Positions 4,768-17,154 of a stretch of 19,216 nucleotides of DNA are shown here, in pieces. The stretch is from the NCBI GenBank assembly GCA_011364975.1, contig RDOE01000059.1, positions 1-19,216 on the forward strand. Direction: 5' to 3'. Position 1 is the stretch's first letter; each line of letters opens with the position of its first letter. A model generated the notes under the pieces. It did not search any database. It saw only the letters and a program-made list of their open reading frames with translations, and was not told the origin of the DNA. A program made the translations under genes and the position numbers. This DNA comes from Promethearchaeota archaeon (GTDB lineage: Archaea; Asgardarchaeota; Lokiarchaeia; Sigyniarchaeales; SOKP01).

Positions 4768-4953
4768 TTATGTTCACTTAATAATTTAAAATTTTTAGTT
4801 ATCAAATAATTAATATTGATATATTTCAATATAAAGCTTTTCTGAATAAGCTTATCTAATTGAAACATTAAAATAAAAAGATTGGTTATCTACTACTATA
4901 TAACGGGGAGATTTTTTTCTTTGTTAAATTAAGCATTTAAAAGTTGATGCAAT

Positions 4954-6078
4954 ATATCGTTAAATAATAGAATTAAAACGTTTTTATATAACCAAGGAGC
5001 ATTAAAAGTTGGATATGCGACAAAAGATTCCCTTAAAGGAGGCCCCTCTACTGTTGATTTTACTTATTCTTTACTCGAAGGCAAATCAGTGGTATGCTTT
5101 GCTCTCCCTTTAGACAAAGAAAAAATACGTGCATTTTTGCGGAAGGATTTACCAAATGGTCGGAGAGGGCATGAACTAGATAATATTGAAACCAATATTC
5201 ATGTTTTTAAAATTGCTATTAAATTAACTGATTATCTTAACAGTTTAGGGTATAAAGCAAAGCCAATTTTTCCAAATTATAAATATCGAGAAGATGTTCC
5301 TGGATGGGAAATAAATATGATTCCCGAACTAAGCTTAAAATTAATTGCAGCAAGATCAGGAGTGGGCTCTATTGGATTATCTGGTAATTTAGGCTTGAAA
5401 GGGTATGGCGCTACTATAATTTTAGGAGGCGTTGTTACAGATGCTTTACTCCAAGCAACTGATCCTATCCCTCAAGAAGAATCTTTTTGTAATGAGTGTA
5501 GGCTATGCCAAAAAGTATGTGCCTTCAGAATGTTTGGAACTGATGAAATGGAATCTATTGATATTGGTGGGTATACATTTTCTTGTGCCAAGCGAATTAA
5601 TCTTACGAGATGTCAGATTGTATGTAGCGGTCTTTCTGGATTGGATAAGTCGGGCCAATGGTCAACTTGGTCTCCTGGACGATATGATTATCCTGAAACC
5701 GATAAAGAAGTTATGCGTTTATTGGCAATAGCGGTTAATAATAGCTCAAAGTGGCCCGATGATGGCACAGAAATTGGGATGGAAATTGCGAATTTAGAAG
5801 AAGATGAAGAATTATCTATGGTTTTAGGGAATGATAAAGAAAAATTATTTACTATGATAAAAAACACCAAACTAACCTGTGGGAATTGTCAATTAATATG
5901 TTGGGGATATCCAAAATTAACCAAAGAAAATTTCGAAATTCTTACTAATTCGGGATGTATCGTTCAAAATGAAACGGGAGAACTTCTGGTGTTATCTCCT
6001 AACAAAGCAGAAAAAGTGTTCAGTAAAATGAATCCTGAACATCAAAGATTATATTATAAGAAGATTCGTAGATTTTAG
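4954..6078 (+). CDS. Epoxyqueuosine reductase (QueG)/reductive dehalogenase-like Fe-S protein, probably cobamide-binding; predicted ATA start
   Basis: AARSGVGSIGLSGNL followed by CNECRLCQKVC and CGNCQLIC. The frame extends upstream of GTG 5089 (SLNNRIKTFLYNQGALKVGYATKDSLKGGPSTVDFTYSLLEGKSVVCF) to TGA 4945-4947. ATA 4954 follows AGTTGA by 6 nt. Confidence 0.75.
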   Translation: MSLNNRIKTFLYNQGALKVGYATKDSLKGGPSTVDFTYSLLEGKSVVCFALPLDKEKIRAFLRKDLPNGRRGHELDNIETNIHVFKIAIKLTDYLNSLGYKAKPIFPNYKYREDVPGWEINMIPELSLKLIAARSGVGSIGLSGNLGLKGYGATIILGGVVTDALLQATDPIPQEESFCNECRLCQKVCAFRMFGTDEMESIDIGGYTFSCAKRINLTRCQIVCSGLSGLDKSGQWSTWSPGRYDYPETDKEVMRLLAIAVNNSSKWPDDGTEIGMEIANLEEDEELSMVLGNDKEKLFTMIKNTKLTCGNCQLICWGYPKLTKENFEILTNSGCIVQNETGELLVLSPNKAEKVFSKMNPEHQRLYYKKIRRF

Positions 6079-6275
6079 TATTTATCCTAGAACATTTCCT
6101 ATTCATTTTGTTAAGAAATATATGAGAAATTAGAGTTGGGCTTATTAAGTTGCTTAAATTCATTATTAATTAAATCTAATAAGCATATTTGCAATCTCAG
6201 GAAAATGTACAGGTTAAATGGGCCAATTTGAATTTGTTAAAAATTATATAAATAATTATAATTTGAGATTTTTAA

Positions 6276-6359
6276 ATGAGTATTGGAAAAACATTATCAA
6301 TTGTTGGATGTATTTTTAGAATACTAGGTCTAATTTTAACTCGAGATTATAAATATTAA
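6276..6359 (+). pseudogene. 27-codon ORF resembling the first TM helix of a membrane-protein paralogue (remnant or micro-protein)
   Basis: MSIGKTLSIVGCIFRILGLILTRDYKY* resembles the N-terminus of the downstream gene (MESGKLFAILGGILTLVG). Confidence 0.4.
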
Positions 6360-6530
6360 AAATATCTTATTTTTTTAATAAAATATTCTCCACAATCATA
6401 TTTTAAATGAATTTAAATACATAAAAATGTAAAAATTTAAAAGATTTAACTTAGATTTTTATATTACATTTATTTTATAATGCATATCAATTATTTTTTG
6501 TAATTATTTAATATAACAGTGGTGAAAAAA

Positions 6531-7028
6531 ATGGAATCAGGTAAATTATTTGCCATTTTAGGAGGAATACTTACTTTAGTCGGAACATATGTATTTGCTG
6601 TATATGGTACTGCTGGTGTTTATGCAGCATCAGGAATCGGATTTATAATGAATATCCCAGACTTATTTACGAACGCTGATGCTATTGCAATCTTATTAGG
6701 TACACAAGTATGGCTTTATTACATTCTATTAATTATATTCATTGTTTTCTTAGCTGCCGGGGTTCTGCAAATAGTCGGTATGAACTCAAAAGTGTTAAGT
6801 TTAATCTTTGCTCTCTTTCCACTAGGTGTTGGATTAATGTTTATTTTTCTAGAATACACGGATTTCCTTGGAATTAAAAGTTTATTTTTTGCTCTTATGT
6901 TTGCTGGGGAACATTATGCTGATTTCTATCCAATAATTGTTAACTTAGGCACTCTTGGATTGGGTGTTTATTTAACATTAGGTGGTGGAGTTTTAGGTTT
7001 TATTAGCGTTTTCTTACCAAGAGATTAG
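6531..7028 (+). CDS. Hypothetical multi-pass membrane protein (~165 aa)
   Basis: About four hydrophobic helices. GGTGA (6521-6525) lies 5 nt before ATG 6531, so the start was moved from 6519. Confidence 0.8.
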   Translation: MESGKLFAILGGILTLVGTYVFAVYGTAGVYAASGIGFIMNIPDLFTNADAIAILLGTQVWLYYILLIIFIVFLAAGVLQIVGMNSKVLSLIFALFPLGVGLMFIFLEYTDFLGIKSLFFALMFAGEHYADFYPIIVNLGTLGLGVYLTLGGGVLGFISVFLPRD

Positions 7029-7050
7029 CTTAATCTCAAAAATTTTAATC

Positions 7051-7725
7051 TCAATTTTTTTCTTTTATTAATTTTGTATCCAATTCTTCCATATCACTAG
7101 GTTTATTTAAGTTTTTGAAAGATATTAGTTCTGGATCATAACTGCGGATTTCCTGCTCTATAGATACATATCGAATCTTCCATTTTTGACTTATAATATT
7201 TGTTAATTTGTACTTTTTTTTTTCTAAACTATATTTAGCTGTCTTGTAAGCTTTTTTTATTGGATAAATAGTAAATAAAGGTTCAACAAAACCATTATCC
7301 CATCTTGGAATACACAGGTCATATCCATGAGATATTTTTATGAGAAATTTTAAGACTTCCGGTTTAATGAAGGGATTATCACATGATAATACAAATCCTT
7401 TCTCATATCCAAGATTAGTTAATTCTTTAAAAAGCGAATATAAACCTAACATAGGTGTTCGTAAATTTTTTTCAGAAGATATTTTATTATCATCAATTAT
7501 AAAACCCATTAATTTAGAATAATCGATTTTATCAATATAACTTTGAACCTGTTCTTGAGAATTTGCAACTAAAAAGATATCCTTCGCTAAATTTAATATT
7601 GCTTCAATTTGGTAACTAACAAAAGGTTTACCTTTATATTCATATAATCCTTTATCAGTGCCTAACCGATTACTTTTTCCACCAATTAATATTGCAAAAG
7701 TTAGGTATTTATTTCTATCTCTAAT
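7051..7725 (-). CDS. mobA: Molybdenum/tungsten cofactor guanylyltransferase; predicted ATT start
   Basis: The in-frame extension upstream of 7509 holds the MobA N-terminal GTP-binding motif AILIGGKSNRLGTDKG. The C-terminal part has LSCDNPFI, EPLFTIY and FKNLNKPSD. Full length is 224 aa from ATT 7725, with an in-frame TAA at 7738-7740. Confidence 0.9.
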   Translation of the reverse strand: MRDRNKYLTFAILIGGKSNRLGTDKGLYEYKGKPFVSYQIEAILNLAKDIFLVANSQEQVQSYIDKIDYSKLMGFIIDDNKISSEKNLRTPMLGLYSLFKELTNLGYEKGFVLSCDNPFIKPEVLKFLIKISHGYDLCIPRWDNGFVEPLFTIYPIKKAYKTAKYSLEKKKYKLTNIISQKWKIRYVSIEQEIRSYDPELISFKNLNKPSDMEELDTKLIKEKN

Positions 7726-7851
7726 GTTCTTGAAACCTTACTCACAAAATCTTAATATTCTATTAAACTAATGATTAAAAATTATTATACATTAAATTTA
7801 ATTGTAGTTAAAGTAGAAATTAAATTACTTTTTCTTAATTGTTCTAATAAT

Positions 7852-9375
7852 ATGAAATTAAAAAGGAACAGAGTTCTGAGAAGAGATAAACCTTTAGATC
7901 ATTGTGCAGTTTTCGGCGTTGCTTCTAATGATATTAACTATTCTATTACTAAACTTCTCTATAGTGGCCTAATAGCTCAACAACATAGAGGTCAAGAATC
8001 CACTGGTATATCTTTACTACAATCTGGGGGCAAATTATTCACTTATAAACGAACTGGTTTAGTGTCAAAAGTATTAAACAGTAAAGTTATATCTAAATAT
8101 TGGGGAAATGTAGGTATAGGTCATAATAGATATGCAACGACAGGTTCACAAACTTATATATCCTCAGAATATTTACAGCCATTTCATTTCAAGAATAACG
8201 AAATAGAATTCAGTTTAGCATTTAATGGAACTATCGCTAATTATGCAGATTTGAAAGAAAAGTTAGAAGAGATGGGACGAGTATTCGTTACAAATACCGA
8301 TACAGAAGTTATGGCCCAACTAATAGCCTCAATTGCATTGAGCAACGATAGCTGGCCAGAGATACTAGAAAATGCGAGTAAATTTTTTGATGGTTCATAT
8401 TCGTTAGTAATATTGACATCCAATGGAGATATATATGCAATAAGAGATCCTTTAGGTTTTAAACCGCTTTGCTTAGGAACAATACCTTCAGATGTTAGGA
8501 AAATTTATTTAGTTTCATCAGAATCCTGTGCTATTGATGCTGTTGGAGGAAAACTTATAAGAGATGTAGAACCTGGAGAAATTGTACATTTAAGTTTAGA
8601 AAAAGGTATACATTCTGAGAATATATTAAAAAATAATAGAAAAGCTTTGTGTCAGTTCGAGTTTGTATATTTTGCACGACCAGATTCAGTCATTGACGGT
8701 GTCTCAGTTGCTAAAACCAGATTAGAGTTGGGAAAACATTTAGCTATAAATGATCCTATCTTAGAAGATCCTGAATTTCGAGAAAATGCTATTGTAATAC
8801 CAGTACCCGATTCTGGTCGTAGTGCGGCTGTAGGGTATGCAAAGCAATCAGGATTACCATATGTAGAAGGATTAATGAAGAATCGCTATGTATGGAGAAC
8901 ATTTATTATGCCCGGTCAGAAAAAAAGAGAAGCTGCAGTAAAAGAAAAATTAAATCCTATTCGTAGTGTTATAGAAGGGAAACATGTTATTATATTAGAT
9001 GATTCTATTGTAAGAGGGACCACAACGGAGAAAATAATTAACTTAATAAGAGAAGCCGGAGCAAAAACAGTTAACGTACGAATAAGTTGTCCACCTGTTA
9101 GAAGTCCTTGCTATATGGGCATTGATTTTCCCACTACTGATGAATTAATTGCTGGAAGATATCTCAAGATATTTGGAAGAGAAGAATTCATTGAAGAAAT
9201 CCGAAAAAAAATAGGCGCGGATACTTTAAGGTATCAAACAATTGACGATTTAGTTGACTCAATAGGCAAAGGAAAAAGTCAATTATGTATGGCATGTTTA
9301 ACTGGAGAATATCCTTTAAAATCCGTTGTTAAAATTGCAGATTTAGAAAAATCAATTGCCATGGATAGATGTTAA
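7852..9375 (+). CDS. purF: Amidophosphoribosyltransferase, canonical Fe-S/propeptide type
   Basis: Propeptide followed by catalytic Cys (DHCAVFG), then QHRGQES, GHNRYATTG, CQFEFVYFARPDS, PVPDSG, DDSIVRGTT, PCYMGID and CMACLTGEYP. ATG 7852 is preferred over 7771. Confidence 0.95.
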   Translation: MKLKRNRVLRRDKPLDHCAVFGVASNDINYSITKLLYSGLIAQQHRGQESTGISLLQSGGKLFTYKRTGLVSKVLNSKVISKYWGNVGIGHNRYATTGSQTYISSEYLQPFHFKNNEIEFSLAFNGTIANYADLKEKLEEMGRVFVTNTDTEVMAQLIASIALSNDSWPEILENASKFFDGSYSLVILTSNGDIYAIRDPLGFKPLCLGTIPSDVRKIYLVSSESCAIDAVGGKLIRDVEPGEIVHLSLEKGIHSENILKNNRKALCQFEFVYFARPDSVIDGVSVAKTRLELGKHLAINDPILEDPEFRENAIVIPVPDSGRSAAVGYAKQSGLPYVEGLMKNRYVWRTFIMPGQKKREAAVKEKLNPIRSVIEGKHVIILDDSIVRGTTTEKIINLIREAGAKTVNVRISCPPVRSPCYMGIDFPTTDELIAGRYLKIFGREEFIEEIRKKIGADTLRYQTIDDLVDSIGKGKSQLCMACLTGEYPLKSVVKIADLEKSIAMDRC

Positions 9376-9376
9376 G

Positions 9377-10777
9377 TTAAACCGTACCATCCCAGCAATA
9401 GGTACAAAGTTTTTCTTTTGGTAACCCTATAGCTTTAACCAAATCTTCAAGTTTTTGATATTTTAAAGAGGTAAGATATAATTTTTTTCTAATTATTTCT
9501 ACCATAGATTTATAATTTTCAGATTCAGGATTGATATACTCAGATGGATCATCAATATTTTTTCCTATGAGTTCTTTAATTGCCCATCTTCCTGCTAAAT
9601 CTAATTCAGATCTCGATTGTGAGAAATTGAGAAACTTACAACTGTAAATTAAGGGTGGACATGCAGGACGCATATGAACTTCTTTTGCTCCTCTTTCATA
9701 TAATCCTTTAACGGTATCCTTCAATTGCGTTCCTCTAACAATTGAATCATCACAAAACAAAATCTTTTTTCCTTCAATTAATTCTTGAATTGGGATGAGC
9801 TTCATCCGTGCGACTTCATCACGGGTTTTTTGATCTTGAGGCATGAATGAACGGGGCCATGTAGGAGTATATTTAACAAATGGGCGTGAGAATGGGACAT
9901 TAACTTCATTTGCATACCCCAATCCATGCCCTATACCTGAATCTGGAATTCCCGCGATTAGATCGATATCTACATTATCATTTGTTGCTAAATGAGCACC
10001 ACATCTATATCTTACTATTTCTACGTTTACATTTTCGTAACTCGATGCGGGATATCCATAATATACCCATAAAAAAGCACATATTTGTAAACGTTCACCA
10101 GCTGGGATTTTTTGTTCAATCCCCTCTTTACTTACAAATACTACTTCTCCTGGTCCAAGATATTTTTCGATCTGATAACCTAAATTAGGAAAGGCACAAG
10201 TTTCCATGGTTATGGCATAATACCCTTCTTTCTTTCCTAAAATGAGTGGTGTTCTCCCTAGCTTATCTCGAACTGCATAAATTCCTTCATTGGTTAAGAT
10301 AAGCATCGTACATGAACCATCAATACATTGATTGACTTTTTTAATTCCTTGTTCAAAGGTAGAGCATTGCGAGATCAACGTTGCTATCATTTCTGTGGGG
10401 CTTATTTCTCCACCATGCATCTCTGAGAAATGAGATCCATTACTTAATGCTTCTTTTGCTAATAATTCTAAATTATTAATTTTACCAACAGTTGCTATAG
10501 CAAAAACGCCTAAATGTGAATTTATAATAAGCGGTTGATCATCAAGATCACTAATAACACCAATACCTTTATCTCCATGCATCTTTTTTATATCTCGATC
10601 AAATTTTGATCTAAATTGGCTAGTAGTAATATCTTTAATGAATCGCTGGAAACCCCCGGAATTCTTCACTGCCAATCCGCCTCTTCTGGTTCCTAAATGT
10701 GAATGATAATCTGTTCCAAAAAACAGGTCTTTTACACAATCAGAACTTATAGAAACAACTCCGAATAAACCACCCAT
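9377..10777 (-). CDS. purF: Amidophosphoribosyltransferase paralogue lacking the glutaminase nucleophile
   Basis: The PRTase half is conserved (GIPDSG, DDSIVRGTQ, RPACPP, CTYCW). The protein starts MGGLFG with no Cys1 and lacks QHRG and GHxRY. AGTGA SD 7 nt upstream. Confidence 0.85.
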   Translation of the reverse strand: MGGLFGVVSISSDCVKDLFFGTDYHSHLGTRRGGLAVKNSGGFQRFIKDITTSQFRSKFDRDIKKMHGDKGIGVISDLDDQPLIINSHLGVFAIATVGKINNLELLAKEALSNGSHFSEMHGGEISPTEMIATLISQCSTFEQGIKKVNQCIDGSCTMLILTNEGIYAVRDKLGRTPLILGKKEGYYAITMETCAFPNLGYQIEKYLGPGEVVFVSKEGIEQKIPAGERLQICAFLWVYYGYPASSYENVNVEIVRYRCGAHLATNDNVDIDLIAGIPDSGIGHGLGYANEVNVPFSRPFVKYTPTWPRSFMPQDQKTRDEVARMKLIPIQELIEGKKILFCDDSIVRGTQLKDTVKGLYERGAKEVHMRPACPPLIYSCKFLNFSQSRSELDLAGRWAIKELIGKNIDDPSEYINPESENYKSMVEIIRKKLYLTSLKYQKLEDLVKAIGLPKEKLCTYCWDGTV

Positions 10778-11150
10778 TACTTCATCACTATATATTTACT
10801 TTATATTACTGCTATTAAAGTAATTTATTAATCTAATAAGATTTTAAATAGTCTAAAATGACTTAGAATAAATGGGAATTATGAATAAATTAGAATTGAT
10901 AAAATATTCTATTACTTTTTTACATTTATTTATAAAAATCCTTATTACATTAATCTTGTTTTTTCTAGCTTATTCTGGATGATTTTCAGTTGCCGTAATC
11001 CCTTTATCCGTGAATAATGAATTGAAATCCTCATTGCGAATTTTTAAATTATAAGGCAAAATTTTAGATTTATGATTATACCTTTCAAATTAAGTTAACA
11101 ATAAGAAGATCTATTAAGATATTAATGAGATATTATTTAAAAAAAATCAA

Positions 11151-11165
11151 AGGTGTTTTAAAATA
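11151..11165 (+). promoter_or_regulatory. Shine-Dalgarno motif plus non-canonical ATA start of gapN
   Basis: AGGTG-ttttaaa-ATA. No ATG/GTG/TTG occurs in frame between TAA 11115-11117 and TTG 11403. Confidence 0.7.
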
Positions 11166-12662
11166 GTAAAAAAGTTAGATGATTCAATACTAAGGGATGG
11201 ACTTAATTATAAATACTATATTAATGGTGAGTGGCAAGACTCTAAATCGGGTAAAGTAATTCCAGTAAATAATCCTTACGACAATGCACTTGTTGGGAAC
11301 GTACAAGCTTGTACTAAACAAGAAGCTGAAGATATAATCAAGGTTGCACGTGAAAATATCGCTTGTTGGGTTGATACCCCCCAAAGAACTCGAGCAGAGA
11401 TTTTGTTAAGAGCAGCAAAGTTAATGCGAGAATGGGCTGAACCGTTAGGCTCAATTTTAATGAAGGAGATTGGTAAACCATTAAAGAGTGCTATTTCAGA
11501 AATTTCGAGAACAGCTGATATCTTTGAAGCTACCTCAGAAGCAGGGTCCCAAATAGAAGGTGAATCAATGTTTGGGGATGTTTTTAAGGGATTTACCCGT
11601 GATAAAGTATCCTTAACATCAAGAGTTCCATTAGGAGTAATTCTTTGTATTGGTCCATTCAATTATCCTTTTAATCTCACAGGATCAAAAATAGCCCCCG
11701 CATTAATGGCGGGAAATACTGTAATAGTAAAACCACCTTCCCAAGGTGCAATTACTCCGTTATATTATGGTATAATTTTAGAGGAAGCAGGGGTACCACC
11801 AGGCGTATTTAACATTATTACTGGCCGTGGTTCAGAATTAGGCGATTATTTAGTAAGTCATCCTGGAATCGATATGGTGAGCTTCACAGGATCTTCAGAT
11901 ACTGGTAAACATATTGCTCAAGTTGCAGGTATGAAACCATTATTGTTTGAATTAGGAGGTAAAGATGCCGCGATCGTTTTGGATGATGCTGATTTAGAAA
12001 AAACTGTAGATGCTATAGTGAGTGGGGCCTTTTCTTATAGTGGTCAAAGATGCACGGCCGTAAAAAGAGTATTACCTATGCCGGGAATAGCCGATAAATT
12101 AATTCAAAAAGTGAAAGAAAAAACACTTCTTATAAGTATTGGTGATCCTGCTGAAAACAAAACGATTGGTCCGCTTATTAATTCCAAACAGTGTGATTAT
12201 GTTCAGGAGTTAATTGATGATGCTGTTAACAAGGGAGCTAAAATATTATGTGGAAATAAACGAGAAGGAAATATATTATGGCCAACAATCTTAGATAATG
12301 TTACTACGAATATGAGAGTTGCATGGGAAGAACCTTTTGGACCCGTTCTACCTTTTATCCGTATAAGAAGTGCAGAAGAAGCTATTGAAATTTCTAATAA
12401 GTCACAATATGGCTTACAAGGAATGATTTTTACTGAAAATATTGATCTAGCATTTAATATAGCACAAGAATTAGAAGTAGGTACGGTACAAATCAACGGA
12501 AAAAGTGAACGTGGACCCGATCATTTTCCTTTCTTAGGAACTAAATCATCAGGATTAGGAACCCAAGGGATTAAATACTCAATTGAGGCAATGAGTCGCC
12601 CTAAAGTTGTAGTATTAAATTTATCTGAAAAAGGAAAATTAGTAAAAGATTGTAAATATTAA
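11163..12662 (+). CDS. gapN: Non-phosphorylating NADP-dependent glyceraldehyde-3-phosphate dehydrogenase (ALDH superfamily); predicted ATA start
   Basis: Motifs PFNYPFNL-x2-SKIAPAL, KPPSQG, ELGGKDA, FSYSGQRCTAVKR, WEEPFGPVLP and RGPDHFPFLG. The upstream in-frame extension has the ALDH N-terminus YYINGEWQDSKSGKVIPVNNPYD. Total length 499 aa. Confidence 0.9.
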   Translation: MVKKLDDSILRDGLNYKYYINGEWQDSKSGKVIPVNNPYDNALVGNVQACTKQEAEDIIKVARENIACWVDTPQRTRAEILLRAAKLMREWAEPLGSILMKEIGKPLKSAISEISRTADIFEATSEAGSQIEGESMFGDVFKGFTRDKVSLTSRVPLGVILCIGPFNYPFNLTGSKIAPALMAGNTVIVKPPSQGAITPLYYGIILEEAGVPPGVFNIITGRGSELGDYLVSHPGIDMVSFTGSSDTGKHIAQVAGMKPLLFELGGKDAAIVLDDADLEKTVDAIVSGAFSYSGQRCTAVKRVLPMPGIADKLIQKVKEKTLLISIGDPAENKTIGPLINSKQCDYVQELIDDAVNKGAKILCGNKREGNILWPTILDNVTTNMRVAWEEPFGPVLPFIRIRSAEEAIEISNKSQYGLQGMIFTENIDLAFNIAQELEVGTVQINGKSERGPDHFPFLGTKSSGLGTQGIKYSIEAMSRPKVVVLNLSEKGKLVKDCKY

Positions 12663-12668
12663 TTTTTC

Positions 12669-13748
12669 TTAAGTACTAGGTATAATTTCTCTCTCATACC
12701 TTACCATTTTTATAGCATCTTCGGGACAAGTTATGTCACACAATCCACACCCACCACAATTTTCAGGAATTATTTGTGCAGTCTCATTTAGAAATATTGC
12801 TTTAAATTTGCATCGTTCTAAACAAGTTCCACATGCTGCACATAACTCTTTATCTATTTCTGATAAATAATTTGCTCTTGCTATCGCTCTGGGATTATCC
12901 AGTTTAGTTAAACCCTTCAACATTCCACAACAGCATTCACAACAAGCACATAGGATAGTACAATTTTCAGCTCGATTATCAGTACAGTGCACTAATCCAA
13001 TTTCTGCTGCTTCTTTAGTAAGGACTTTCACTTGGTCTTTATCAATTCCTTTAATTATAGGATCTCCCATTTCTAACACTGCTTTAGCATATGGTCCAAA
13101 TAAAATACAATTATGTATTGGGTACTTATCTTTGCATTCTCTAATTTCCTCTACCTCCGCTCTCATTCTACATGGACATGGAATTACCGCAAAGTCATCC
13201 CATTTATCAATTACACTATATACTTCTTCAATAGGTATTATCTCTCTACTAGGCTCAATTTCTTCACTAACTGTAAGTACTCTAAATCTCGGAGTACCTT
13301 TTCTGTCATTTTGCCAAGTTTTATAATAGTCCTCTTTTTCATAAAAATATCTACTTAATTTAGCAAATTTAATAGCATCTTCTTTATGAGATTCATAATT
13401 CTCTTTTAGAATAAAAGGCATATCATAAATGAACAAAGGCATAGGTTGAGAATATTGTTTTCCTAATTTGAGAATAAATCCCCTTCTTGCTGGTTCTTCT
13501 AGTAATTTAATTAATTCATTTTTATCAAAATTAAGGTTTTTGGCCAGTTTTACAATTGAAATGGTCTCAGGAAAAACTGGTAAGTGTTTTACAATCTCAG
13601 CAATCTCGGGATTATACATTATACTTAAATATTTAAGATAAGTATCTGTAGGTTCTCCATTAGCATCCTTTGGATAAGATTGAGATTTTCTCTCTAATTT
13701 TTTAGCGATAGTTATTAAATTCTTTTTATGATCTTCAGATCTAATCAT
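12669..13748 (-). CDS. Cys-rich 4Fe-4S dicluster-domain protein
   Basis: PCPCR, LCACCECCCG, then CAACGTCLERC and CGGCGLCDITCP ferredoxin motifs. AAGTGA lies 5 nt before ATG 13748. Confidence 0.85.
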   Translation of the reverse strand: MIRSEDHKKNLITIAKKLERKSQSYPKDANGEPTDTYLKYLSIMYNPEIAEIVKHLPVFPETISIVKLAKNLNFDKNELIKLLEEPARRGFILKLGKQYSQPMPLFIYDMPFILKENYESHKEDAIKFAKLSRYFYEKEDYYKTWQNDRKGTPRFRVLTVSEEIEPSREIIPIEEVYSVIDKWDDFAVIPCPCRMRAEVEEIRECKDKYPIHNCILFGPYAKAVLEMGDPIIKGIDKDQVKVLTKEAAEIGLVHCTDNRAENCTILCACCECCCGMLKGLTKLDNPRAIARANYLSEIDKELCAACGTCLERCKFKAIFLNETAQIIPENCGGCGLCDITCPEDAIKMVRYEREIIPST

Positions 13749-13795
13749 AATCTTCACTTTCAATACATTATTTATTAACTTTAATAGTTTGGAAT

Positions 13796-16198
13796 TTACA
13801 ATTTGTTGTAGTTAAATATTCCACCAATTAATTGTCCTATACTTATTCCAGCATCGCCAGCAGGAATTAAATTATGTTCTAAAAAGGTACATCCATTTTT
13901 TATTACTTCTTGCTTGATGGTATTTGAAAATGAGTAATTGTAAGCTGTCCCTCCTGATAATCCAATCTTTTTTACATTATTTTCTTTTGCTGCCTTAATA
14001 GCTAGTAATGCAAAAGATTTAGCAAGCTCTATTTGAAATTTAGCGGCTATATCTTGTTTTTTATAATTATTAATTTTGAGAAGGTCTAATATATCCAAAA
14101 TTAATTTTGATGTATCTATAATAAAATAACCATCTTTATTATCACTTTGAATCTTAAGAGGTATATTATCTGGGTTACCAAGTGATGCAAAACCCTCTAA
14201 TCTCATTGCAGGTTCTCCTTGATAAGATTTAAAATCTGTAACTCCCAGTAAGTAAGAAACGGTATCAAAAATTCTGCCTGTTGAACTTGAGATAGGTATG
14301 TTCTGGTTAGGAAATATATTATTTGAGTTTTTATACTGTGAAATAATAGTAGACAACTCAACCTCTGCATATTCCAAATGTGAGTCAAGGTTAAGTTGAT
14401 CGAAAATATTTTTTGCCTCTTCAATACCAACAGTATTCAATATTATAGAAGCAGCCATTCGAGCAGGATATTTCGTACATCTATCACCTCCTATCATTGG
14501 TTGATATTTTAAATGCCCTAATCGTTGATAATCTTTATAAGTAGCGAGAAAAAGTTCTCCTCCCCATACATTCCCATCATCTCCGTAACCTACACCATCA
14601 GTACATATTGAAATTATACTTTCTTCCTTTCTTACTTTATTTTCTGCCATTAAGGAGAGGGTATGAGCAAAATGGTGTTGTATTTGGTATAATTCAATAC
14701 CATATTGAGAGCTTAACTCTTTTGCTAGCATGGTTGTAGTAAAACCAGGGTGTAGATCACATGCAATAAACTCTACTTCATCATCTTTAATTTGTAACAA
14801 ATTTTTTAAATGAAACAATGCATCTTTTAAAAATTCATAAATCTCCAGATTATTAACATTTCCAATATGTTGAGTTGGAAAAATTCTACTTCTTCTTAAA
14901 ACAGCTCCAGTCACTGTTAATTCTGGACCAACTGCTAAAGCAGCAGGAGTTTTTACCTCAAAGGGTAATGGTAAATATTCTGGAACATATCCTCTCGATC
15001 TTCTAATCAACTTTATAATGTCATTATGCATTCTCAGTACACTATCATCTGCTCTCTGATATATAGGTCTATTATGGAGCAGAAAATAATCAGCAAGATT
15101 TTCAAGTTGACTAAAAATAACTCCATTATCAATACCCATAGGTAAATTTGAGGGATTACCGCTGGTGTAAATTAATGGCTTTCTTCCAACAAAATCAAAA
15201 AGAAGATAATGAATCCCTGAATACGGTAGCATTATACCTATATTATTTAATCCTGGAGCAATGTATTCACTAAAAAGAGATTGATTAAAGGAGTTCTTTT
15301 TTTCCAACAAAACAATTGGTTTTCTGAAAGAATTGAGCATGTCTCTTTCTTTCTCTGATATGTAGAAATAATCTTCAATAAATTTTATATCAGGAACCAT
15401 TACAGCAAAAGGTTTATTCTTTCGCTCGCCTTTTCTTTGCCTAAGCTTTAAAATTATATTATCATCATCAGCAAGACAAACCAAATGTACTCCTCCTATC
15501 CCTTTGATAGCAAGAATACCTCCACTATTTACTATTTTTGAGGATTTTCCTAAAATCTCTTTAATTGAGCTATATTCAATAATATTTTTGAATTTATCAT
15601 AAAGGGTATAATTCGGGCCGCAAACATCACAAGCAAACGTTTGTGCATGAAAACGTCGATTATTGAAATTGGAATATTCTTCAATACAAGATTCTGGTAT
15701 TGCTTGTTTACAAAAAGGAAATTGAGCCATGGTTGTTCGCTCTCTGTCGTAAGGTAACTCTTTAACCGTAGTAAATCTAGGGCCACATACTGCGCAAGCG
15801 ATAAAAGGATAATTGTAATATTTCTTTAAATGTTTATTCCTCATATCTTTAATACAATCTTCACAAATGCCAATATCTGGTGGTAATGATAAACTTATAC
15901 CCCTTCCTTCTTCGCTTTTTTTAATTTCTAAATCATTATACTTAATTTTTGATTCTAAATGTTTAATATCAATATTTTCAATAAAAGCTATTTTCAGCGT
16001 TCTCGTTTTTATATTATCTATAAAACTATCAATATTTTCAGATTCTCCTTGAAGTAATAATCTAACGCCGGCATTACCTCTATTAAGCAGATATCCTTTT
16101 AATTTAAATTCCCGAGCTAAATTAAATAAAAAAGGCCTAAATCCAACTCCTTGGACAATCCCCGTAATGTTAATTTCTATAGTTTGAATCTTATCCAT
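13796..16198 (-). CDS. hypF: [NiFe]-hydrogenase maturation carbamoyltransferase
   Basis: 800 aa. Acylphosphatase motif GIVQGVGFRPF, zinc fingers (CEDC/CAVCGPRF, RRFHAQTFACDVCGP), KGIGGVHL, QHHFAH, DGVGYGDDGNVWGGE and PAGDAGISIGQ. Confidence 0.97.
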   Translation of the reverse strand: MDKIQTIEINITGIVQGVGFRPFLFNLAREFKLKGYLLNRGNAGVRLLLQGESENIDSFIDNIKTRTLKIAFIENIDIKHLESKIKYNDLEIKKSEEGRGISLSLPPDIGICEDCIKDMRNKHLKKYYNYPFIACAVCGPRFTTVKELPYDRERTTMAQFPFCKQAIPESCIEEYSNFNNRRFHAQTFACDVCGPNYTLYDKFKNIIEYSSIKEILGKSSKIVNSGGILAIKGIGGVHLVCLADDDNIILKLRQRKGERKNKPFAVMVPDIKFIEDYFYISEKERDMLNSFRKPIVLLEKKNSFNQSLFSEYIAPGLNNIGIMLPYSGIHYLLFDFVGRKPLIYTSGNPSNLPMGIDNGVIFSQLENLADYFLLHNRPIYQRADDSVLRMHNDIIKLIRRSRGYVPEYLPLPFEVKTPAALAVGPELTVTGAVLRRSRIFPTQHIGNVNNLEIYEFLKDALFHLKNLLQIKDDEVEFIACDLHPGFTTTMLAKELSSQYGIELYQIQHHFAHTLSLMAENKVRKEESIISICTDGVGYGDDGNVWGGELFLATYKDYQRLGHLKYQPMIGGDRCTKYPARMAASIILNTVGIEEAKNIFDQLNLDSHLEYAEVELSTIISQYKNSNNIFPNQNIPISSSTGRIFDTVSYLLGVTDFKSYQGEPAMRLEGFASLGNPDNIPLKIQSDNKDGYFIIDTSKLILDILDLLKINNYKKQDIAAKFQIELAKSFALLAIKAAKENNVKKIGLSGGTAYNYSFSNTIKQEVIKNGCTFLEHNLIPAGDAGISIGQLIGGIFNYNKL

Positions 16199-16396
16199 CT
16201 ACGCGTATAGAAGAATCTGAATTTAATAAGGATAATTGTTATTCCAAATAAAAGATTGTTTTTAATAGAATTTTATCCATTTAAAAATTTATATATTCAT
16301 AAGATAGACTAGGCTAATAATAAGATAAAGAATGGATGGATAGGATTATAATTACAATTATATCATTTTCTTGAGAATTTTAAATCTTTCTAATCC

Positions 16397-17023
16397 TTAG
16401 ATCAATTCAAGTGGAAATAAAATAGCTAGTATAATACCTACTAATGTAGAGAGTATAAATCCTATTAGATATAAACTACCAAAAATTTTAAGATTTCTAT
16501 CCTTATTTTTTATTCCGTGAAAGGTAATAAAAATATAACAGCCAAATATAATTATTGAACCTCCATATGAGAAAGGTAATAGTAAATTCGAAAAAATACC
16601 GATAGGGATATATATTAACGAGATAGTTATTATCGATAACCCGTAACCAATAATCCCCAAAATTCCAGATATTTTCAAATAAAATCCAAATTCTTTCTGA
16701 TTCACTCTTCCAAAATTGAACATTAATACCCCAAAAGTTATAATATAGGGAAATAACCCAAATAATCCTCTAATTGATATATAATAAATATCATTTATTA
16801 TATCATGCATAATTGACCATGGGCCTCTATCACGTAAAGGAATGAGAAATAAATTCACTATTATGAAGATTATATTAATTATTGCTATTAATTTTAATTT
16901 ATTTGGAATTTGATAATTCTCTACATTCTTCTTGCTAGCTAACAATAAAATAAAATTAGCTATTAGGTAAATAACTGAATATATAATAATTATAATATAT
17001 TCTTGGAGTATAGTTTCTATTAT
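16397..17023 (-). CDS. Hypothetical multi-pass membrane protein (~208 aa); predicted ATA start
   Basis: The hydrophobic ORF extends upstream of TTG 16945 by another TM helix (IETILQEYIIIIIYSVIYLIANFIL) to TAA 17036-17038. AGGCGA lies 7 nt before ATA 17023. Confidence 0.7.
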   Translation of the reverse strand: MIETILQEYIIIIIYSVIYLIANFILLLASKKNVENYQIPNKLKLIAIINIIFIIVNLFLIPLRDRGPWSIMHDIINDIYYISIRGLFGLFPYIITFGVLMFNFGRVNQKEFGFYLKISGILGIIGYGLSIITISLIYIPIGIFSNLLLPFSYGGSIIIFGCYIFITFHGIKNKDRNLKIFGSLYLIGFILSTLVGIILAILFPLELI

Positions 17024-17154
17024 GAGTTCTTCGCCTTAATTGGATGATTTAGATATGACTAGTTTTGTCCAAATTTATTTAAAGCTTTTCTTCATAGCAT
17101 TAATTTTTTTATATATTTCTATATGTCATAATAACGTGAATTTATATCAAAACT

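Follow-up and report, generated by a model that had tools for sequence, protein, structure and literature searches.

The DNA analysed here, referred to as the window, is a stretch of 19,216 nucleotides (nt) from a Promethearchaeota archaeon (contig RDOE01000059.1 of assembly GCA_011364975.1). It corresponds to contig C161 of a 3.74 Mb assembly that consists of 200 contigs and has a GC content of 30.6% (G000). The window holds 14 complete open reading frames (ORFs) and one partial ORF. Four of the 14 complete genes, encoding an iron-sulfur (Fe-S) cluster protein, a MobA-like nucleoside triphosphate (NTP) transferase, an aldehyde dehydrogenase family protein and a multi-pass membrane protein, exhibit open, family-conserved N-terminal regions without ATG, GTG or TTG (termed canonical codons in the following). 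In each of them an ATA or ATT is found 2-16 codons past the in-frame stop. A first-pass annotation had interpreted these codons as translation starts positioned by Shine-Dalgarno (SD) motifs. All four upstream-open frames are present as described there, and the SD and start contexts quoted for the four genes as well as the six canonical SD examples are exact in the sequence. Based on sequence comparison we have good confidence that AUU and AUA, and in some cases AUC, act as genuine initiators on SD-bearing mRNAs in this genus, the four window genes included.

Measured from stop to stop, the Fe-S ORF (4948-6078, plus strand) comprises 376 codons, 47 of which precede its first canonical start, a GTG at 5089. 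The MobA-like ORF (7051-7737, minus strand) has 228 codons with 76 before the ATG at 7509, the aldehyde dehydrogenase ORF (11118-12662, plus strand) 514 codons with 95 before the TTG at 11403, and the membrane protein ORF (16397-17035, minus strand) 212 codons with 30 before the TTG at 16945. An SD core of the GGTG/GTGA type is found at none of these downstream canonical codons; the GTG at 5089 has an AGG alone, 7 nt upstream. We define as leader the codons that follow the upstream stop and precede the first canonical start, and consider ORFs of at least 100 codons (n=3073). Leaders of at least 30 codons occur at a rate of 4.7% in G000 (off-frame null rate 2.0%); given this rate, finding at least four among 14 genes has a probability of 0.003 per window. 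As the genome consists of about 200 such windows, this one represents the tail of a real, much lower genome-wide rate.

The proposed start sites of the four window genes

The SD consensus derived from the canonical ATG starts of G000 is GGTGA ending at -7. While the contexts of the four genes hold, two of the motifs proposed as SD, AGTTGA and AGGCGA, each deviate from this consensus by one mismatch.

The MobA-like gene (7051..7725, minus strand) is delimited by the proposed ATT start (7725-7723) and the stop at 7053-7051. The SD-like AGGTTT (7733..7738, minus strand) is located 7 nt before the ATT, i.e. AGGT plus 9 nt. The Pfam profile NTP_transf_3 matches residues 15-176 with 77.9 bits (cut-off 27), whereby profile position 2 falls on residue 15 and the first canonical codon is residue 77 of the ORF. 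The homologous codon is ATT in 16 of the 16 closest orthologues from the same genus (50-60% identity). The codons on either side of this ATT are variable, and an in-frame stop is found 1-14 codons ahead of it. In the sister genomes a G-rich gttggt is found 5 nt before the ATT, and three loci of a paralogue clade show ATG at the homologous position. The extension is 55% identical to the orthologues and the rest of the protein 52%. It is thus highly likely that the ATT is the initiator of this gene.

The aldehyde dehydrogenase gene (11163..12662, plus strand, from the proposed ATA to the stop) follows an AGGTG (11151..11155, plus strand) whose GGTG core is placed 7 nt before the ATA at 11163 (aGGTGt-6-ATA). 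This is the spacing of the strongest start signal in G000. Positions 1-461 of the Pfam profile Aldedh match residues 39-498 with 506 bits; the first canonical codon is residue 96. Moreover, the ATA aligns without gaps to the ATG of Met1 in the orthologues of G020, G018 and G022. We consider it probable that this ATA is the initiator. The first-pass annotation had located family-conserved motifs in the extensions of both genes, and in agreement with this the Pfam profiles begin far upstream of the first canonical codons; the NCBIfam profiles, too, start within these extensions. Both proteins would hence lose essential N-terminal parts if translated from there. Less well founded are the names mobA and gapN given to them, since the best NCBIfam scores remain under the curated cut-offs. 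The MobA-like protein reaches 115.6 bits with its best model, NF001457 (cut-off 164). The dehydrogenase reaches 451.5 with its best one, lactaldehyde dehydrogenase (cut-off 650), and 375.8 bits with the archaeal GAPN model NF040869 (cut-off 780). With neither name secured, we file the former as MobA-like instead of MobA proper and the latter only as a member of the aldehyde dehydrogenase family.

The Fe-S gene (4954..6078, plus strand) runs from the proposed ATA start at 4954-4956 to the stop. The AGTTGA (4942..4947, plus strand) lies 6 nt before the ATA, and its TGA is the in-frame stop bounding the ORF. The family is unnamed, with weak QueG- or reductive-dehalogenase-like matches. Among five orthologues (66-69% identity) the start-homologous codon is ATT in three (L042, L043, L046), while L044 and L045 have an ATG at the same or the adjacent codon. 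L043, the orthologue from G024, repeats the layout of the window with agttga-6-ATT. Further away in the family, ATT is found in the paralogue L047, and L053 carries ATA at the codon occupied by ATG in its own paralogue L057. Identity to the orthologues amounts to 54% in the extension versus 69% in the rest of the protein. Taken together, the ATA is likely to be the initiator of the Fe-S gene.

The membrane protein gene (16397..17023, minus strand) belongs to no named family. It is read from the proposed ATA (17023-17021), with another ATA directly behind it, up to the stop. The AGGCGA (17031..17036, minus strand) is found 7 nt upstream of the ATA at 17023. Paralogues in G000 and the sister genomes begin with ATG-ACA (MT[IL]IF.YFQY). 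In the window gene the position of this ATG is GAA, and the two codons immediately before it are ATA ATA. Initiation at ATA is only slightly favoured here.

ATT and ATA behind Shine-Dalgarno cores across the genome

The codon dependence was evaluated by an SD scan of G000. For every GGTG, the codon located after a spacer of 7 nt was recorded; it had to open an ORF of at least 100 codons and to lie within 20 codons of the in-frame stop with no canonical codon in between. ATG/GTG/TTG opened such an ORF in 33 of 462 cases, ATT/ATA in 28 of 744 (3.8%), ATC in 5 of 223 and CTG in 1 of 87. Eight AT-rich control codons did so in 17 of 3017 (0.56%), which corresponds to an odds ratio of 6.9 for ATT/ATA versus controls (p = 4e-10). 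Four other members of the genus, pooled, follow the same trend with 4/143 vs 3/603 behind GGTG plus 7 nt, and with 8/207 for ATT/ATA vs 5/772 for controls behind GTGA plus 6 nt. In three outgroup genera no enrichment of ATT/ATA was seen, neither for GGTG plus 7 nt (5/371 vs 11/1520, not significant) nor in the second SD scan (5/499 vs 18/1871). As the sampled outgroup stretches are of the same or similar GC content (31%, 31% and 35%, G038 left out), AT-richness alone is not the explanation.

With exact 5-mers as SD, in-frame ATT/ATA showed a roughly twofold excess of preceding SDs over off-frame ATT/ATA; a far sharper signal was obtained with defined 4-mer cores at a defined spacing. In the leader zones, SD-preceded ATT/ATA are in excess by 32 ORFs with strict and 59 ORFs with relaxed spacing. 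Among 30 unique candidates supported by homology, 16 have an SD core before ATT (11), ATA (4) or ATC (1). The first canonical starts of G000 carry an SD core in 388 of 3085 cases (12.6%). Hence the weak codons are coupled to strong SDs.

Leader lengths give a within-genome view of the same phenomenon. Leaders of at least 30 codons are found in frame for 145 of the 3073 ORFs of G000 compared to 62 and 60 in the two off-frames. For at least 50 codons the numbers are 56 versus 12 and 22, and for at least 80 codons 25 versus 1 and 5. The off-frame controls provide the null within a genome. They do not by themselves set apart the outgroup G032, whose raw leader lengths are similar to those of G000 and G018. 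It is the homology tests and the codon-specific SD scans that separate the genus from the outgroups.

For the homology test a pair of orthologues was counted if at least 10 aligned residues (at least 30% identity) lie upstream of the first canonical start of one partner; pairs whose canonical starts align were excluded. Partner ORFs come from sampled stretches of 40-800 kb per genome, and related genomes are not independent observations. On the G000 side, extensions were found against members of the genus in 8/194 (G018), 10/185 (G008), 1/53 (G017) and 1/19 (G010) pairs and against other genera in 10/255 (G032), 4/166 (G038) and 10/218 (G030), adding up to 44 of 1090 pairs (about 4%). The four other genus members show an extension on their own side in 22 of 451 pairs, the three other genera of the order in 5 of 639 (0.8%). 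The recurrent SD-positioned initiation at ATT/ATA postulated for the window is thus a genome-wide trait, specific to the genus and not shared by the order.

In mechanistic terms, the 30S subunit would be positioned by a GGTGA-type SD 6-8 nt upstream, whereupon the usual initiator tRNA with its CAU anticodon would pair with the first two bases of AUU or AUA, leaving a mismatch at the third, and the protein would be made with its full N-terminus. We infer that the initiator tRNA reads exactly these codons and not their neighbours, and the efficiency of such starts and the tolerance of the genus towards them are likewise deduced.

Three loci possibly represent starts other than ATT/ATA. In C15 of G000 (C15|+|5542|6112) a CTG behind AGTGA is aligned to the partner's ATG, and C26 (C26|+|7811|8657) has an ATC behind GGTGT plus 6 nt. 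A gene of G018 (locus L095, plus strand, 13757-15836) shows an AGGTG followed only by GTC and ACA codons.

Conserved genes with probable non-canonical starts

Pfam profile positions 1-5 are located upstream of the first canonical codon in a number of G000 genes. These encode an ATP-grasp/CoA-ligase protein, a GPN-loop GTPase, GcvT, a CbiA/ParA-type ATPase, CinA, a GFO/IDH oxidoreductase, an ABC ATPase, an alpha/beta hydrolase, subunit D of the A-type ATPase and the ribosomal protein S19e. In the GPN GTPase, GcvT and the C5 membrane protein an ATT is aligned exactly to the ATG of the partner.

The SucC-like ATP-grasp/CoA-ligase protein (G000:C163:6865-7989, minus strand, locus L231/L281) was compared among 17 genomes of the genus. 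The codon homologous to Met1, located before RLLEYESK, is ATA in ten, ATT in five, GTA in one and ATG in one of them, and GAGG or GGTG precedes it by 6-8 nt. In three outgroup loci the codon is GTG or ATG. For S19e (G000:C169:8364-8786, minus strand, locus L241/L251) the first canonical codon in G000 is a GTG at codon 71 of 140. Of 24 loci within the genus, nine including G000 show GGTG followed by ATT AGC and no ATG, and 15 have an ATG. S19e of the outgroup genus g2, to which the complete genome G032 belongs, also has no canonical start. Two of its three loci have an ATT behind GGAAGGT, and the third (L278) offers CTG or ATA as candidates.

Judged from these alignments, the non-canonical starts are stable over genus-level time, with ATT and ATA interchanging. 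Essential genes, namely those for S19e, subunit D of the A-type ATPase and aIF1 (see below), are among the ATT/ATA genes, and genes of weak expression are not the only ones to show the trait. The idea that such starts tune expression sits awkwardly with S19e being an ATT gene.

The aIF1 gene and the initiation machinery

Outside the window, the gene for the initiation factor aIF1 (SUI1; G000:C38:7743-7958, minus strand, locus L121) consists of 113 codons with no ATG, GTG or TTG before codon 110. All 15 loci of the genus share ...aaaggttgTGA, three variable codons and an invariant ATT AAA GA., whereby the zinc knuckle has its first Cys six codons after the ATT, and the SD is spaced 9 nt from the ATT. 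Two paralogous copies show GAGGTGA-N8-ATT AAA GA. instead. We also surveyed 80 aIF1 loci from archaea. The 16 closest of them, all from named records of Promethearchaeota metagenome-assembled genomes (MAGs) that may overlap the sampled genomes of the genus, have ATT (14) or ATC (2) and no canonical codon. An ATG four to five codons before the Cys is present in 54 of the 80, and the nearest canonical codon in the remaining loci is GTG in seven and TTG in three. In one of the seven GTG loci, L319, this GTG is part of a GAGGTGA-N8-ATT layout like that of the genus paralogues. Within the order, the aIF1 start is ATG (f4, g8), GTG (g10, g11), TTG (g2, g9), ATA (g5) or ATT (this genus). The conserved ggttGTGa upstream of the ATT also contains a GTG that opens an out-of-frame mini-ORF of 3-6 codons, ending on or just before the ATT (GTG AAA TAA in G000).

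The aIF1 protein itself shares 24 invariant columns with the outgroups, and no loss of invariant residues was seen in the alignment of the genus. The only detectable CAU tRNA with A1:U72 and a GGG:CCC anticodon stem is canonical-looking, so that the putative initiator tRNA of G000 (G000:C170:15971-16103, minus strand; 133 nt, interrupted by intron sequence) looks like a normal archaeal initiator. Overall 15-21 tRNA genes, many with introns, were detected in G000 (aragorn or Rfam). Positions 4-828 of the 16S rRNA are present in the assembly, and its 3' end with the anti-SD lies outside. The first-pass annotation had deduced a relaxed start fidelity in this lineage. Such a relaxation is conjectural, with a canonical-looking initiator tRNA and the invariant residues of aIF1 kept; what the sequences do show is an ATT start of the aIF1 gene itself.

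The genus thus carries a fidelity-factor gene whose own initiation site is suboptimal. Passages in PMC4705826 describe that aIF1 of S. solfataricus discriminates against AUU on a model mRNA. According to passages in PMC4705826 and PMC6237735, bacterial IF3 is autoregulated via its AUU start and eIF1 via a poor AUG context (Ivanov et al. 2010 as cited in both). An AUU-initiated aIF1 would be the archaeal counterpart of the autoregulation of IF3 and eIF1. Tentatively, the genus may have reset its start-codon stringency via aIF1. In such a scenario the AUU-started aIF1 would repress its own synthesis, its level settling where AUU/AUA led by a strong SD stays workable, which would have let dozens of genes including S19e drift lastingly from AUG to AUU/AUA. 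A link between the aIF1 start and the genome-wide habit is hypothetical. It predicted an enrichment of ATT/ATA in g5, a genus in which aIF1 likewise lacks a canonical start and shows ATA, and this prediction failed. In g5 one of 218 pairs had an extension, and the SD scan gave 2/271 for ATT/ATA vs 1/1067 for controls with no shared enrichment. Hence the aIF1 start is not a simple correlate of the genome-wide habit.

Alternative explanations

Several points weigh against real initiation at AUU/AUA in this genus and in the window. In the window, the SDs of the Fe-S and membrane protein genes (AGTTGA and AGGCGA) are imperfect. For the membrane protein paralogues only and no close orthologue were found, which makes it the weakest of the four cases. 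All ten of the closest aldehyde dehydrogenase orthologues in the genus (L002-L011) begin at ATG, so the ATA is specific to G000. Moreover, the N-terminal 80 residues of this protein are 47% identical compared to 81% for the rest, which leaves room for a recent loss of the start. An exact-pattern scan of metagenome contigs around the ATA at 11163 (third base N) returned no match, and the contamination of G000 is estimated at 6%. The candidate lists also contain false entries, namely two TGA-bounded ORFs that look like selenoprotein continuations instead of starts, and about three candidates that turned out on hand inspection to be upstream non-coding similarity. Owing to these entries the true share of genes with a non-canonical start is probably 2-5% genome-wide. 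The estimate of about a quarter of the genes in the first-pass annotation therefore describes this window and not the genome.

The dehydrogenase data form the core of an explanation by gene decay, in which mainly the aldehyde dehydrogenase and the membrane protein have recently lost their ATG and yield no full-length protein. In addition to the ATG of the orthologues and the diverged N-terminus, the second conserved Met of the dehydrogenase is now CTA in G000, and the paralogues of the membrane protein begin at ATG. However, the frames are intact over 500 and 208 codons, whereas off-frame stretches of at least 50 codons free of starts and stops amount to only 0.4-0.7%. The ATA of the dehydrogenase is located at exactly GGTG plus 7 nt, and in other genes of the genus (ATP-grasp, S19e, aIF1) ATG has, as a rule, given way to ATA or ATT without loss of function. 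We regard decay as unlikely, though as the most serious of the alternatives. A sequencing or assembly error that turned ATG into ATA or ATT could be suspected in a metagenome assembly of 200 contigs, but the non-canonical codons recur in independently assembled genomes (MobA-like 16, aIF1 15 with G000 included, ATP-grasp 16). For aIF1 they are also present in the 16 named MAG records, with the possible overlap mentioned above. Such an error is thus extremely improbable. Between 65 and 89% of the sampled 31-mers of the window are found in 20 runs from 6 studies, with no RNA run among those listed; this is not site-level evidence.

Initiation at the first downstream ATG, GTG or TTG with untranslated upstream frames would agree with the output of callers restricted to these codons, as four of five truncated forms stand in public catalogues. 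A shortened MobA-like protein would be left without the G-G-x-S-x-R-x-G-x-D-K nucleotide-binding segment despite an extension as conserved as its remainder, and in the dehydrogenase the region aligned to Pfam profile positions 1-57 would be missing. With the missing SD cores at all four canonical codons and an aIF1 devoid of any canonical codon until 110 of 113, downstream initiation is very improbable. More subtle is the possibility that the N-termini are translated from another signal, such as a neighbouring codon, a leaderless 5' end or re-initiation, with ATT and ATA as bystanders. Both are common codons and most leaders hold one by chance; 14 of the 30 homology-supported candidates have no SD core before ATT, ATA or ATC. 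One ATP-grasp orthologue has GTA, and the CTG candidate of G000 is aligned to its partner's ATG. Against this stands the codon-specific enrichment over the eight AT-rich controls and the twofold SD preference of in-frame over off-frame ATT/ATA. The ATT is invariant in the MobA-like and aIF1 genes amid variable neighbouring codons, and it meets the partner's ATG exactly in GPN GTPase, GcvT and the C5 membrane protein. Another signal is hence improbable, and initiation at AUU/AUA explains these observations best.

Comparison with known systems

Initiation at ATA, ATT and ATC is known from mitochondria and Mollicutes (NCBI tables 2, 4 and 5), and NCBI table 11 lists ATT, ATC and ATA as possible starts. 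Mitochondria and Mollicutes resemble the genus described here in that AT-rich genomes accept AUH initiation, but their translation machineries are reduced or altered.

Closer to our case are bacterial infC, coding for IF3, and pcnB of E. coli, where a weak AUU or AUA start is likewise found behind an SD. With infC the genus also shares that the factor proofreading the start codon is itself encoded with a weak start. In contrast, the factor here is aIF1, an archaeal/eukaryotic-type SUI1 protein unrelated to IF3, and a feedback on its own gene would be hypothetical. Moreover, two or three genes in the bacterial case compare with tens of genes per genome here. As eIF1 is the eukaryotic homologue of aIF1, the fidelity factor has a suboptimal initiation site in both. 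According to the passages cited above, eukaryotes use an AUG in a weak Kozak context for this, whereas the genus uses AUU (AUC in 2 of the 16 named MAGs) behind an SD.

In S. aureus, passages of PMC13009471 report AUU/AUA starts with an extended SD for cvfC1, ccpN, citZ and infC that are conserved among relatives and gave about 10-30% of the expression from AUG. The pairing of such starts with a strong, well-spaced SD, described there as invariable, resembles our findings, but the passages treat four sites in one bacterial genome compared to an excess of 32-59 ORFs and about 4% of the pairs here. Additionally, our case concerns an archaeon whose canonical starts mostly have no SD (12.6% SD-positive). 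For the cultured Lokiarchaeon, a passage of the review PMC7531240 describes SD motifs as not widespread. For Asgard archaea, the methods passage of PMC13394414 remarks on a single "rare ATT start codon" for the tubulin AtubA from a Kariarchaeaceae MAG. As in our genes, the upstream ATT restores the fold and places a likely ribosome binding site at a plausible distance. That remark concerns one gene in passing during cloning, and genome-wide, lineage-wide or aIF1-related aspects are absent from the passage. In full-text searches of the literature, which cover main texts (Figures S1C/S6 of PMC13394414 and PMC13009471 may hold more), we found neither a systematic treatment of Asgard genes initiated at ATT/ATA nor a report of an aIF1 started at AUU.

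Consequences for annotation

Exact look-up of five products truncated to the first ATG retrieved four of them from NCBI, JGI/IMG, ENA and Logan. For the GPN GTPase, GcvT and CinA the NCBI-sourced proteins, encoded on contigs equal in length to those of G000, begin at ATT or ATA (written as M), whereas the calls in JGI/IMG, ENA and Logan are truncated. The NCBI entry for the ATP-grasp protein of G000 is the truncated form, 35 residues short. Pipelines disagree systematically for this lineage. The expectation that standard callers truncate such proteins thus applies to calls limited to ATG, GTG and TTG but not in general to NCBI, where three of the five genes start at ATT or ATA.

Asgard catalogues built on ATG, GTG and TTG alone will contain N-terminally truncated proteins of this genus or miss them, and aIF1, a marker gene, is not callable at all in this way. 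Structure prediction, domain inventories and completeness estimates suffer from this, as do the comparisons of eukaryote-signature proteins that these genomes are mined for. The practical cost of a missed ATT start is illustrated by the AtubA case as far as the published methods passage describes it (PMC13394414). Beyond annotation, a free-living archaeal genus with AUU/AUA at a few per cent of its genes, among them essential ones, next to sister genera of the same or similar GC content without this trait, would offer a natural experiment on start-codon stringency in the aIF1/aIF2 system, which is ancestral to the eukaryotic one. The AUU start of aIF1 makes the autoregulation hypothesis directly testable.

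Additional observations

Two genes of G000, C69 (C69|-|1737|1980) and C167 (C167|-|11207|11534), are short ORFs directly after a TGA. They are conserved from the first codon in G000 and G018 (YP.ECDYETGNYF..., PYC..H...) and look like parts of selenoproteins downstream of a UGA selenocysteine codon. In the window, two amidophosphoribosyltransferase-like (PurF-type) genes are arranged tail to tail at 7771-9375 (plus strand) and 9377-10777 (minus strand). In the former, 45 residues precede the catalytic Cys, and the ATG at 7771 may not be its true start.

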